The translations under genes and the position numbers were made by a program. A DNA stretch of 64,000 nt from Eledone cirrhosa (lineage: Eukaryota): contig OZ024740.1 in the NCBI GenBank assembly GCA_964016885.1, forward strand, positions 227,044,001-227,108,000. The letters run 5' to 3'. Each line of letters begins with the position of its first letter. The stretch's first letter is position 1. Below are positions 9,453 through 27,656 of the stretch, piece by piece. The notes under the pieces were generated by a model. The model saw nothing but the letters and a program-made list of their open reading frames with translations, was not told where the DNA came from and did not search any database.

Positions 9453-12400
9453 TATCATCAACATCATCATCGTTTAACGTCCATCTTCCACGCTTGCATG
9501 GGTTTCGACGGGAATTTTCCCACTTGAGGCAAGATTGGTTGTCTTGCTCGTATAGGACTGTCTAGCGGGTTTTCTATGGCTGGATGCCCTTCCTAACACC
9601 AACCACATTTACAGTGTGGGGCTGGAAGGTTTTTACCGTGTTACCTACACGGCTATATTACAGCGTGGACTGTGTGTTTTTTTGTCGTGACACCTACACA
9701 ACGTCATTTATTTCGGACAGGATGTTGTGGTACCAACATAACTTTACATCGAAAGGGGATGTGTGGATGGAGTAGGGGTAGTGGGACGGGGGTGTATTTT
9801 TGTTAAGAGGTGCCTACTGACTGTAGGTTTCACTTTGTACTTAGGCAAGGCGGGTCTTCTGTATTACTGTGTAGCGCCAAAGATCTCGGTCCAGTGACAT
9901 TGTCTTAGAGAGGTGTAAGTGTGTGAGGTCGGAATTTATCAAGTCGTCCCAGGTTTTTCTGGGTCTGCCTACTCCGTGGCTACCGTCTATTTTTATCGCC
10001 CTGCACTTTGTTATACAGCTGTCGTCTTTCATGCGCATCACGTGACCATACCAACGTAGCCTTCTCTCGAGTAAACAACATCTGATCCCTCTTATTCCTA
10101 ATTTCTCCCTTAGTTCATTTATTCTTTGCCGTTCACGTATATTACTATTACACATCCAACGGAGCATGCAAGCTTCGTTCCTCTCCAGTCTGCGTATATC
10201 CTCTGCACACAATGCCCAAGTCTCACTGCCATGTAACATTGCTGTTTGTATGCAGGCATCATACAGTCGGCCTTTCATTTTTAGAGAGAAACTTTTAGCG
10301 GCCAATAGTGGTATAAGCTCTCTGAACTTTTTCCATCCCGTTCTGACTCTAGCTACTGTATTTTCAGAGCACCCTCCACCACTGCTGATTTTGTCACCCA
10401 GGTAATGGAAGGTGTCCACTATTTCTATAGATCCATCTGTGGTCACTTGCTGCTACTTATTGCACCTGAGCACCGGCCACATATAAAATCTATATTCTTA
10501 GTTAGCTTACCTGTGATTCCACTACATCTTTTATGCACCCATACATTGCATTTGGGACATAAAATGGAGTTTTTGCCTACTCCTTTCCTACACACTGAGC
10601 ATGGCCATTTCCCAGATGGGACCAGTGCCATTTTCTTTCCTACAAACTAGAACTTTAGTCTTAGACAGGTTAATTTTAAGGCCTTTTGATTCTAGGCCAT
10701 GCTTCCATGTTTGGAATTTCTTCTCTAGTTCAGCCATTGATTCAGCTATGAGCGTTAGATCATCTGCATATAGGAGTTCCCATGGGCAGCCGGTCTTGAA
10801 CTCCTCTGTTATAGCCTGAAGGGCAATAATAAATAGACGGGGCTAAGGACGGAGCCCTGATGAACGCCAAATTTTACGCTAAACTCTTCACTATATTTGT
10901 TGTTAATTCTAACCTTGCTGACTGTTTCTTTATACATGGCTTGTATAGCTCTCACATGCCATTCATCAACACCTAGTTTGGGTGTGGGACTCTGTCAAAG
11001 GCTTTCTCCAAGTCTACAAAAGCTAAGTATAGGGGTTTACTTTTAGCTAGGTACTTCTCCTGTAGTTGTCATACAATGAAAAGAGCGTCTGTGGTACTTT
11101 TACCTGACACAAACCCGAACTGCATTTCATCTAGATGAATTCACTCTCTGATTAGTTGCGCTATTACTTTTTCTGTGACCTTCATGACCTGGTCAATTAA
11201 TTTAATGCCTCTATAGTTTCCCCTGTCTAGGGCATCTCCTTTACCCTTGTAGCAGTTAATGATGATGCTGCTATGCCAGTCCTTCGGAACGACCCCATTC
11301 TGTATGACTTGGTTTACTATCCGGGTGACCATAGTGTGTCCCACCGTTCCAGATGCTTTCAGCATTTCAGCAACTATCTCCGAAGGCCCAGCTGCCTTGC
11401 CTGTCTTCATATCTTTGATCGCCTTACTTATTATACTACCTTCAACTTGCACTGCTGGTCCCTCTATTGGATCGATGTGGGTGAGACTGTCTTTCTCCCA
11501 TTTATTCTCCTCATTTAGTAGCCTTTCGTAGTGACACTTCCAAACTACCTTCTTATCAGCGTCAGTGATGGCAAGTACACCATCATCATTAAGGACACAC
11601 TTGTCCCTGACAATATCACAGTTTTCCTTGACACATTGCCTAGTAATCCTGAACACCTCACGTTTTTGGTCCTCGCGTTGTAGAACATGCTTGAACTTTC
11701 TTTCCTCTGCTTCCCTTCTTGCAAAGTACACTTGTCTTCTAGCTTCCCTCCTGGCTACTTGATAGTCTTCTCTACTTCCCCCATCCCGCCATACTTTTCA
11801 AGCCTGCTTTTTGGCTTTGATTGACTCCTCCACCTTACTGTTCCACCACCAAGCTACTCTCCTCCTGTCTATAGGTCTGCTCCAGCCACAGATTTCATCT
11901 GTCGCCTTCAGCAGGTTAGCTTTCAGGAATTCCCACTGTTCCTCTATATTGCTCTTCCTTACTATCAAAAGCATCAAGTAATATGCTTTTAAATTTATTA
12001 CTGGCTGTGGGGTCCTTTAGCTTCCATATTTTTCTCCTGAGGATAGTCCTCCTCTATTGTCAAGTACGTCTCGTCCTGACTATTAGGTCGCTAATCATGA
12101 GTCTATGTTGAGAGGTGCATTCTTCATGGGGGAGGGATTTAGTGTTTACAACAGACACTCTGTCACGTCTTCTGGTAAGGATATAATCTATCTGGCTGGT
12201 GTGTTCCCCTGATCTATAGGTGATCAAGTGATTGTCTCATTGTTTGAAGTTAGTGTTACAGATAGTTAGGTTATTTGTGTCACAGAATTCCAGGATTCTG
12301 GAGCCTTCCTCATTTCTAGTACCAAACCCATAGCCTCCATGGATTCCGTCATAGCCATCACAATGTTGTCCAATGTGACCATTTAGGTTGCCAGCGATAA

Positions 12401-13407
12401 TTATGTAGTCACTGTTGGTTATTTGGGAGGTAGTGAGCATTAACGACTCATAGAATCTGTCTTTTATAACGCCAGGCAGTCCGGATTGGGGTGCATATGC
12501 AGATATTATTGTCACAGTAGTTCTATTGAGGACATGTCTTATCTTAATTATTCTGTCGTTCACTCTATTTACGTCTATTATCTTATCTGCCCACTTTTCT
12601 GCTACCATGAATCCTACTCCACCCAGCCCATTGTCATTTCCCACCCAGAAAAGCTTATAGCATCGTTTTTTACCCACAATGAATCTAGCAGACCCACCCC
12701 TCCACCTGGTCTCTTGAATACAACAAACATCGACCTCCTTACGTTCAAGCATTTCTACAACCTCGTTAGAGCGACCATTCATGGTACCAACTCTGAAGTT
12801 TTGGATTGCGTTTGGAGGGTGGGAACGGTGGGGTGCGGGGGGGGGGGGGGTTATGTTAGCCATCCGCGGACGAAATAAAGAGGAGGACTCCTTGCATTCT
12901 CGTCCGGCAGCATGAGGTGAATTTGTCTTTATCTTCGGCATTGTCACTGAGTGTCCAGATTTTTTCTTTACAAACTCTCCAGAATTCCGTAGTCCATCCA
13001 TCATATCGAAAGGCAACCAGGTCTAAACTTAAGAAGTGATAGCATAGGCTGCTGACTTATGATTGGTCCACGTAATAATGGTGGTGAGTTAGAGGCGGGT
13101 GGGAGGGATATGGGGTAGTTAGCGAGAAGGTTTAAATAAAATCCTCGAATTTTGGGCATAATTGAACAAGCATATATAACAGTAATAAGACAAGAATTAT
13201 GGGATTTTAAAAAATACATGAAGATTGTTTTGAACAATCAGACAGAATTATCGAATAGCATTGAAAAAGCAAAGATTGGATTCGGGATGAAATGATACAG
13301 ATAGATGAATGGACCGGGTAAAAAATGGAGAGAAGAGTAAAGAAAAGAGCATTTGTATGTTACATTTCGCCGAGCGAGCGAGCAGCCTAGCCAGGAATAG
13401 GGATTGA
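9453..13407 (-). mobile_element. Near-full-length degenerate RTE-clade LINE
   Basis: APE endonuclease, RT with LYADDL (~10757-10774), C-terminal RRLRWYGHV and GRPRKTW motifs, 3' UTR, (GAT)n tail; 5' end abuts (TA)n and is inferred. Confidence 0.93.
9841..13016 (-). pseudogene. RTE ORF (APE endonuclease, reverse transcriptase, PHD-like finger), broken by stops and frameshifts
   Basis: ORF fragments 12237-13016 (CIQETRW, SAYAPQ, GNLNGH), 11141-11731 (KGKGDALDRGNYRGIKL), 10443-10631 (C4HC3), 9841-10446. Confidence 0.92.
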
Positions 13408-15364: not shown

Positions 15365-16309
15365 CTTTCTTTATTTGCCACAGGGGCGTACAAAAATGGG
15401 ACATTACAAGACGTGACGGCAGGGGTTTTACATAAAAATAACTTTAACATTAATAAATAACAATAAACTATATATAATAAAATAAGAATTGAAATCCCCA
15501 ATAGGGGGGGGGGTGTTACTGCAGGGTTGTTTTACACCCTGTGGATAGAACAACCCTCAACACCAGGAACACTCTTTGTAGGTGTTCCTGTCTTCCCTCT
15601 GTTTATCTTCCTCAACCTACAGGTTTATATACAGAAAAGGCCCATTCACTCGGGCTATTTTCGCCACATTCACCCACCTTTCAGCGAATTTACTGGGGTG
15701 TAGCTCCTCTCTCTACACTCTCACCTTTCTTCTGAAGTGATACTTAAAGAAGGGGATAAGTTGTTGTCCGGAGAGAAAGGTGCTTGCTCTCAGTCCTTTT
15801 AACCTTGTCCACCATATTACCTCTTTCGCCATAGCCACCAGACAGAGGAAAACCGCCTCTCCTTCGTTCTTAAATGAAGGCGGCGGGGTGATCCTCACGA
15901 TGAACTCGGCTGACAACTGGATGCGTCCCACACGTGGCAGCAGCTGTTCGACATAATTCCACAGGTCGGTCACCCCTGGACACTGAATAATTGCGTGCAG
16001 AACGGTTTCAATGTCCTGCTCGCATCTTGGACAGGTCCTTTTGGCAGGATCTCTACCAGGGCGTCCATGCCTGTGGATTTTGTTTCGAACTAGTAGAGCT
16101 CCTCGGTAGCACTGCCAGGCCAGAGACCCCTGGAAGTTATCCATAGGCCCTGGACGGAAAGTCCTCCCGAACAGACTGCTCAGTTCGTCCTCCTCAATGC
16201 CTAGAGTTTCCCCGAGAACGTCATCGCACTTATCCTCCACTAATCCCTTATAGAATGTCGAAGTGAAGTCTCCGCTGATTGCCGTTTCCGCTTGGTAGAG
16301 GGCTGTGAG
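15365..16309 (-). mobile_element. 5'-truncated Tx1/L1-clade LINE (ORF2 C-terminus with CCHC zinc finger, 3' UTR)
   Basis: ORF 15713-16342 (SLAWQCYRGAL, CPRCEQDIETVLHAIIQC) is homologous to 42087-42770; AATAAA then GATA-type repeats. Confidence 0.9.
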
Positions 16310-16639
16310 TTTATATTTACTTGTGTTTAGAATTTGATTCAAAATTGTATGACTAAAAATTCCTCAGGAGTGGAAAGATGCACTCCTGGTTCTTCAAATG
16401 TGTTATTCTAAATGAGAAGGTTTTGCCAGATTCTAAATAAGGCTGATTCACCTTGAATGTTGAGAAAGGGTCTTTCTTATTGGTTAATCTATATCATTTA
16501 GTAGGATTGGTGGCTACAGACTGCCATTAAGGACTGTTACTGACTACTACTGAATAAATTGATGGTTGCTGACTGCTATTAAACAAAAGCTTTGGTACAA
16601 TGTACAGCAGTACCTTTCCACCTACACATATGGAATTCT

Positions 16640-24409: not shown

Positions 24410-24914
<505 letters not shown>

Positions 24915-27306: not shown

Positions 27307-27357
<51 letters not shown>

Positions 27358-27409
27358 AACAAGGGGAGAGGAATACTGCGTGGTTGCACATGGATTACAT
27401 ATAAAATTA

Positions 27410-27512
27410 GTCCCTCATCAGTGATTTGCCAACCATCATTGGTATTTCATCGCATTAAAAATCAGATACCTCAGGTTGGTGCGAGCAATAACTAAAATAA
27501 GCTATTGGGACA
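27410..27512 (-). ncRNA. Candidate non-circularly permuted hammerhead (copy 2)
   Basis: Minus: gtcc caatagc..gttattg c tcgca ccaacCTGA ggtAT-C tgattt ttaa tgcga t GAAA tacc aATGATGgttgg c aaatca CTGATGA g ggac. Confidence 0.75.
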
Positions 27513-27656
27513 AGTGAACGCGTAAAGCGAGTGAGACAAGTAAACAACAGAAGGAAAAGCAAACCGAAGGTTGATATATTATGGAATACTGTTAGCTTCT
27601 CGCTACAACAATTTCTATACTTTTCATTTATATCTATATATATATATATATATATA

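Follow-up and report, generated by a model that had tools for sequence, protein, structure and literature searches.

The window analyzed here is a 64,000-nt stretch of the AT-rich, 3.0-Gb genome of Eledone cirrhosa (contig OZ024740.1, positions 227,044,001 to 227,108,000), and it contains two copies of a repeat that carries a candidate permuted hammerhead ribozyme. One of them, at 27354..27573 on the minus strand, is a 5'-truncated copy of subfamily A (about 220 nt; 536-nt monomer) whose end is a (TA)n run located 61 nt past CUGAUGA; its putative ribozyme spans 27410..27511 (-). The other, at 24493..24769 (+), is a 5'-truncated copy of subfamily B (617-nt monomer) flanked by (TA)n runs. Its ribozyme region occupies 24615..24718 (+), with the predicted cut at 24663/24664, GAAA at 24680 and CTGATGA at 24707, and has a private 2-nt insertion ahead of the hairpin described below. 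The full descriptor matched the window at these two sites only, 24707(+) and 27421(-), and matched none of 50 shuffles; bare CTGATGA occurred at chance level (13 against 10.2 expected). No Rfam model matched in the window, as expected from the pseudoknotted block order, and the nested minimum free energy fold was unremarkable (z of -1.56 and -1.02 for the two copies).

Repeat-finder output for the window was dominated by (TA)n. The segment 27575-27640, which abuts the 5' end of the minus-strand copy, also abuts a subfamily A copy at another locus (L024) and probably represents the terminus of a different element that went into (TA)n. Long LINE-type ORFs, with endonuclease and reverse transcriptase (RT) recognized by eye, lie at 42087-47106 (-) and 15713-16363 (-), the second being a fragment; we take both to be Tx1/L1-like. 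Broken LINE-type endonuclease and reverse transcriptase frames at 9841-13022 (-) are presumably RTE-like. Long tandem arrays with higher-order units, GGT-rich and CAT/CAC-rich, occupy 29830-35200 and 58600-60200.

In both copies the core elements follow the order cleavage site, GAAA, CUGAnGA (blocks S, G and C, 5' to 3'), which is the non-circular permutation known as type SGC. The minus-strand copy begins with GTCC (27508..27511), the 5' strand of a closing helix whose partner GGAC lies at 27413-27410, followed by a junction hairpin, CAATA/TATTG, of 7 bp here (27486..27507). Next come TCGC (27481..27484), the 5' strand of a helix that stands in for stem II (partner GCGA, 27453-27450), and CCAACC (27474..27479), which pairs with GGTTGG at 27434-27429. 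Block S (27459..27470) comprises the stem III strand GGTAT (27470-27466), C17 at 27465 and the stem I strand TGATTT (27464-27459). After GCGA, block G (27441..27449) consists of U11.1, GAAA (27448-27445) and the other stem III strand, TACC (27444-27441). Block C (27410..27427), which follows GGTTGG, holds the stem I strand AAATCA (27427-27422), CTGATGA (27421-27415), G10.1 (27414) and the final GGAC. Because of the S-G-C order, stems I and III cross. With three further helices present, stem II is reduced to one pair, which is predicted to open into a four-way junction. The 6-bp helix CCAACC/GGTTGG would bridge the stem I and stem II sides, a tertiary contact whose three-dimensional role we infer and whose pairs show double changes among copies.

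The core itself is that of a hammerhead, with CUGAnGA, GAAA and an NUH with A15.1-U16.1. NUH was AUA or AUC in 148 of 150 copies, and pair 15.1-16.1 was present in all 148, partly by ascertainment; the invariance of the core among copies is no evidence, because the search patterns required it. A canonical stem II, in which the strand following CUGAnGA would form at least two pairs with the one preceding GAAA, is absent: there is 1 bp here (G-U in the minus-strand copy). Block C is likewise interrupted, at most the first stem II pair following CUGAnGA. We considered pairing of 11.1 with the base before TCGC, which fits 16 of 150 copies; the canonical partner fits 136 of 150, and the canonical single pair was therefore retained for the Eledone family. 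In subfamilies A-C another register, one that invades the hairpin, is also possible.

A first-pass annotation, based on the two window copies, had proposed that the minus-strand copy is widely diverged in its flanks and preserves every helix. Each base it quoted was confirmed: CTGATGA, GAAA and an NUH are kept in the minus-strand copy, and the two copies differ in NUH (AUC versus AUA), in stem I (T-A to C-G and A-T to G-T), in stem III (T-A to T-G), at two compensated pairs of the 5' hairpin and at pair 10.1/11.1 (G-U versus A-U). The cut that it placed between 27465 and 27464 of the minus strand is the position also predicted here, by analogy with hammerheads (PMC10085705). The flanks are homologous instead, identity amounting to 77% between the copies (163 nt) and 72% between the monomer bodies (312 nt); by sequence the two copies are members of sister subfamilies. 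The helices it listed are real, and three were missed: GTCC/GGAC, TCGC/GCGA and CCAACC/GGTTGG. These are identical in both window copies, and two of the three covary in other subfamilies. Its weakest claim is pair 10.1/11.1, since 13 of 148 copies mismatch there and Naiads elsewhere make the pair with a different strand.

The same annotation had concluded that selection acted on RNA structure during amplification, which two copies alone are insufficient to demonstrate. Larger sets support it, and further copies did not break the pairs as often as they kept them. When 85 distinct copies were aligned (12 of 97 being truncated and left out), 91.6% of cells were paired, with double changes at 18 of 33 pairs (255 cells). 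This level was reached by 0 of 500 shuffles, tests which kinship among copies inflates, and slid controls did not exceed 47.5%. The closing helix was paired in only 72.9% of this alignment because subfamily C is one base shorter after CUGAnGA. A pair-type census of 148 parsed copies (20 of 168 were left out as truncated or unparsable) found 4,481 of 4,588 pair cells paired and all 31 pairs intact in 86 copies. Since relatedness inflates shuffle tests, variants were split by frequency. Pair types shared by at least three copies kept pairing 26 times (17 by double change) and broke it 9 times; rare types kept pairing 20 times and broke it 46 times (Fisher p 5e-5, the types being not fully independent). 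That shared variants mostly keep pairing and rare ones mostly break it indicates structural selection on the source elements that founded subfamilies, with inserted copies decaying neutrally.

Individual helices contributed differently to this pattern. Stem I and the bridging helix each showed double changes at 5 of 6 pairs, and whole helices have been exchanged between subfamilies, for example CCAACC/GGTTGG for CTGATT/AATCAG. In the closing helix, 12 of 148 copies have A-U in place of G-C, a double change, and two hairpin pairs show double changes in 58-60 of 148. Stem III has mostly one-sided changes within the family and is fully different in Naiad loci. TCGC/GCGA is nearly invariant, each pair being kept in 142-146 of 148 copies, with almost no covariation within the family.

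Genome-wide, we counted at least 15,083 intact GAAA-to-CUGAnGA blocks (11,142 + 2,799 + 1,142) and none in reversed controls. The units, about 470-800 nt long, are 5'-truncated, tandem or inverted, and lie in (TA)n; measured lengths were 470-641 nt and 630-806 nt, with up to 9 units in a row. In one nine-unit array (L194, units of 721-806 nt), length varies by an internal TTC microsatellite. Among 100 insertions, 18 were tandem, 15 had an inverted head-to-head partner and 69 were solo, and 87 were terminated by a simple repeat within 130 nt. Where both ends of an inverted pair were measured, they differed by 38-46 nt in 12 of 13 cases, close to the one-sided tail of Penelope-like element (PLE) insertions (30-40 bp, PMC8557442). 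Partial tandems, an inverted 5'-truncated copy, a one-sided tail and a microsatellite target are the features of a non-autonomous PLE, and this insertion structure matches that described for PLEs by Craig et al. (PMC8557442). The tandem units are non-coding, as in retrozymes, with one hammerhead each and no protein-like ORF seen by eye; the type I hammerhead of animal retrozymes is absent, the order being S-G-C. Most copies run intact through the predicted cut site. Over 119 nt, copies of subfamily A show 100% identity, and by this measure the subfamily is young.

Among the copies examined, including diverged copies extended upstream (16 + 8 loci), no ORF was found upstream of the ribozyme, and hence no N-terminal GIY-YIG with C-terminal RT as in an autonomous Naiad. 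A PLE ORF beside the copy at L079 was rejected as the body of the repeat; it lies past a (TA)n run and belongs to a distinct element of RT-then-endonuclease layout. A nearly intact PLE with RT and then GIY-YIG, an Asn/Thr-rich N-terminal insertion and inverted ends lies beside (TA)n at L121:3406-6629 and L124.

Several other repeats came up in the same searches. A related non-coding family (L125-L154, e.g. L135 and L131) shows the same fold by eye; its helix beside GAAA is GGCGC/GCGCC, made with a 5' strand, and canonical stem II has 0 bp, as in Naiads. Its pattern had 571 matches against 11 in the control, and 12 of 30 loci passed the descriptor. An older family (L183, L161, L162, L156) is apparently devoid of the junction hairpin, and its stem III and linkers are more like the published octopus Naiad ribozyme. 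A different repeat (L081:1960-2085(-), L081:2100-2225(+), L040:908-1031(-)) has a possible type II order (GAAA, cut site, CUGAnGA) with a 3-bp stem I. In a third repeat family (L021:802-927, L027:882-1009(-), L054:968-1095), GAAA and CUGAnGA are 26-28 nt apart.

Naiads have been reported to be without canonical hammerheads, although 17 were flagged as having unexplained cores (9 HHR_core and 8 HHR_half_core; Craig et al. 2021, PMC8557442), and their describers took this absence to suggest that hammerheads may only parasitize PLEs. We read by eye the published Naiad consensus ends in part of the supplement of that paper. Nine of these ends show the S-G-C order (Naiad_Obim, Naiad_Ovul, Naiad_Smim, Naiad-1_Dst, three coral records and two others), covering octopus, spider, ostracod and coral. 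Six records of the nematode section have a clean C-S-G order with a canonical stem II; by the same reading, Naiad_Omin and the record preceding Naiad_Smim have no such motif, and the ends of Naiad_Esco and of a ctenophore record are ambiguous. In Naiad_Obim and Naiad_Ovul the SGC fold lies about 74 nt from the 3' end (52-68 nt in most Eledone copies). Every helix of these octopus Naiads is changed yet paired, and their hairpin loop is identical to that of the Eledone family.

The fold also occurs in some Naiad loci of other organisms. A natural 233-residue open stretch from remnants in the Eledone genome served as query and fetched 8 proteins, two of which have N-terminal GIY-YIG plus RT (matches below Pfam cut-offs); with Naiad proteins, 84 loci from other organisms were fetched. 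When the 51 loci with at least 250 nt behind the ORF were searched for every one of the six block orders, 7 sense and 0 antisense matches resulted, with 8 in 510 shuffles; six of the seven were SGC and one was scored GSC but is SGC by eye. A junction descriptor, written after these matches had been seen, gave 8 sense matches, 0 antisense matches and 0 in 1,680 shuffles over the 84 loci. Seven of the eight lie behind the Naiad ORF, and the eighth 840 nt ahead of it, where an upstream pseudo-LTR would be. The seven 3' matches represent about four sequence types, unrelated in sequence to the Eledone family. In all seven, canonical stem II has 0 bp, the helix beside GAAA is a G-C-closed 6-bp helix made with a 5' strand, and CUGAnGA runs directly into a closing helix of 4-8 bp. 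With this geometry G10.1 is supplied by a separate strand, and the canonical single pair of the Eledone family likely corresponds to the Naiad junction shifted by one step.

The remaining 76 of the 84 loci had no junction-descriptor match; many of their contigs end early, and several loci with more than 1.3 kb behind the ORF contained no CUGAnGA. Rfam models, including the hammerhead model, had no match in 20 Naiad loci, and the fold was found in 0 of 120 viral loci holding the bare motif. Naiad ORFs at L331-L334 were on contigs filed in bacterial genome bins, which are probably host animal DNA. Within the Eledone genome, a decayed Naiad family (L188-L250; 140 candidates, 72-85% identical to the query copy) ends at (TA)n. 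No ribozyme was recognized downstream of these decayed elements in 30 loci, 20 of them extended. The fold of the Eledone repeat recurs in some Naiads of other organisms; none was recognized at the decayed Naiads of the Eledone genome. The Eledone Naiads are full of stops and look dead, while subfamily A is young. A short motif modelled on the published octopus Naiad ribozyme gave 9 matches against 8 in the control, with no ORF.

We looked for a footprint of cleavage among the genomic copies. A homology break just 5' of the predicted cut was seen in 292 copies, against 91 in a window further upstream, many of the latter looking like point mutants; the window just 3' of the cut gave 290 matches that mix truncations with 1-nt deletions. 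Of 30 inspected breaks at the cut, 26 were true truncations: 8 lay no more than one base from the cut, 2 no more than three, and 16 joined through TATA microhomology, which leaves them ambiguous. The pile-up is suggestive of cleavage and confounded, as TATA microhomology alone could produce it. With regard to activity, one natural hammerhead whose single-pair stem II is accompanied by a pseudoknot has a cleavage rate of more than 1.2 per minute (Perreault et al. 2011, PMC3088659); by analogy, a stem II of one pair is compatible with fast cleavage given support from a pseudoknot.

We favor, with a probability of roughly 0.8, the reading that this is a non-coding Penelope-type repeat with a hammerhead core near its 3' end in S-G-C order, pseudoknotted and with a four-way junction, which is predicted to cut its own RNA at 27465/27464; cleavage of the minus-strand RNA at this position by a pseudoknotted ribozyme is likely judging from sequence. 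The repeat is likely a Naiad-derived retrozyme. Inheritance of the ribozyme module from a Naiad 3' end is probable, while for the idea that a Naiad enzyme moves the young subfamilies the chances are about even. In the proposed mechanism, transcription through tandem units would yield multimers, which the ribozyme would cut to unit length. The cut RNA might then be re-joined or circularized, as shown in other animal retrozymes (PMC7229834). Re-joined, circularized or uncut RNA would be copied in trans by a Penelope-like reverse transcriptase and GIY-YIG endonuclease, with nicked (TA)n priming synthesis on CAUAU tracts located 14-16 or 54-68 nt past the core. Such copying could generate fixed 3' ends, partial tandems and copies extending across the cut site; those that stop at it could stem from the copying of linear cut RNA.

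The strongest competitor keeps the active ribozyme and changes the mover: a canonical PLE family with a C-terminal endonuclease, also targeting (TA)n, would mobilize the repeat, and the likeness to Naiad ends would reflect old capture or convergence. We rate this somewhat below even odds. It fits the contrast between stop-ridden Eledone Naiads and identical subfamily A copies, and the nearly intact RT-then-GIY-YIG element does adjoin ribozyme copies in two loci; however, that element has no such ribozyme, adjacency is expected from the common (TA)n target, and the fold sits at Naiad ends across several phyla. A different possibility is that the structure is selected but non-catalytic, a signal that binds reverse transcriptase and positions priming, with the core kept for its shape. 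Copies intact through the cut site, the fixed distance of the module from the 3' end and the minimal stem II would all suit such a role. Yet all subfamilies, and also Naiad sequences unrelated to them, retain NUH, A15.1-U16.1 and the geometry of the stems, and truncations accumulate at the cut, which makes a purely structural role unlikely.

Blocks of adjacent tandem units, or two RNAs, might alternatively assemble into a hammerhead of conventional or dimeric type, as minimal PLE hammerheads do; dimeric cleavage is known among PLE hammerheads, and arrays of up to 9 units would offer the material. This is quite improbable: every helix forms inside a stretch of about 100 nt, the covariation is intramolecular, stem III is non-palindromic, and the cyclic order S-G-C stays the same however often the unit is repeated in tandem. 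Least credible, with hardly any weight in our assessment, is a chance motif in an amplified repeat with covariation only apparent from shared ancestry. The copies are indeed related and the MFE z-scores are weak, but whole helices have been replaced with pairing kept, the architecture recurs in unrelated sequence at Naiad ends, and both the 148-copy census and the Naiad-locus descriptor result contradict it.

The favored reading, self-cleavage by an SGC hammerhead, extends to Naiads: the same predicted fold sits at their ends, so the ribozyme likely cuts Naiad RNA. We also lean, a little less firmly than for inheritance of the module, toward a broader view in which Naiads kept the Penelope hammerhead, many in non-circularly permuted form (SGC in cephalopods, arthropods and cnidarians, CSG in nematodes). 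Here SGC would be a new four-strand topology, the chain being opened between A9 and G10.1 and stem II coming from a 5' strand via a four-way junction, and it would have given rise to its own retrozyme class of more than 15,000 copies.

If true, non-circularly permuted hammerheads would be abundant residents of animal genomes and would belong to a defined clade of retrotransposons, and there would be a directly testable answer to why Naiads seemed to be without hammerheads. The three-block assumption behind the six possible permutations would be broken, and a path between forms is suggested, as SGC-with-junction and nematode CSG have one ring order. The whole class would escape the type I descriptors of retrozyme surveys. 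The literature covered, which lay outside subscription papers, contained no account of hammerheads in permuted order from Naiads, cephalopods or retrotransposons. A 2023 study described non-circular permutations from metatranscriptomes, metagenomes and one weak bacterial candidate (PMC10085705). Hammerhead variants with additional helices have been mentioned (PMC13725137); the portions consulted of one source cited there and of a related preprint describe no such junction.

Compared with known systems, the repeat resembles Naiad PLEs (PMC8557442) in (TA)n targets, partial tandems, an inverted truncated copy and a one-sided tail, and in two octopus Naiads the ribozyme fold, judged by eye, is the same and equally far from the 3' end; the repeat differs in having no ORF and units of about 470-800 nt. 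With animal non-LTR retrozymes (PMC7229834; 10.64898/2026.07.22.740005) it shares non-coding tandem units with one hammerhead each, low GC and probable movement by PLEs. In contrast, those retrozymes carry type I hammerheads, were found with type I descriptors (the 2026 preprint of Li et al., 10.64898/2026.07.22.740005, uses type I models only, in the part consulted) and have expressed units of about 170-400 nt. Circular RNA was shown for them (Cervera and de la Pena 2020, PMC7229834). The hammerhead with a one-bp stem II (PMC3088659) is similar in having a single-pair stem II backed by a base-paired tertiary helix, but it is circularly permuted and, as far as its account was consulted, no extra junction is described for it. 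Closest are HRIMA-1 and its variants, the type SGC hammerheads shown to cleave and found in metatranscriptomes only (Eckert et al. 2023, PMC10085705), which agree in S-G-C order, conserved core, crossing stems I and III, a short stem I-to-GAAA linker and a helix bridging stems I and II. Their stem II is formed directly by the strand after CUGAnGA, whereas this strand contributes one pair in Eledone and 0 in Naiads; the comparison follows main-text descriptions, and the supplementary alignments of that paper may hold junction variants. The Eledone form has in addition the closing helix, the hairpin and the 5'-strand helix, that is, the predicted four-way junction, and its host is an animal genome and a retrotransposon. 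A repeat that would work like a hammerhead, shares the type SGC block order and departs from it in stem II appears to be a hammerhead variant not described before.
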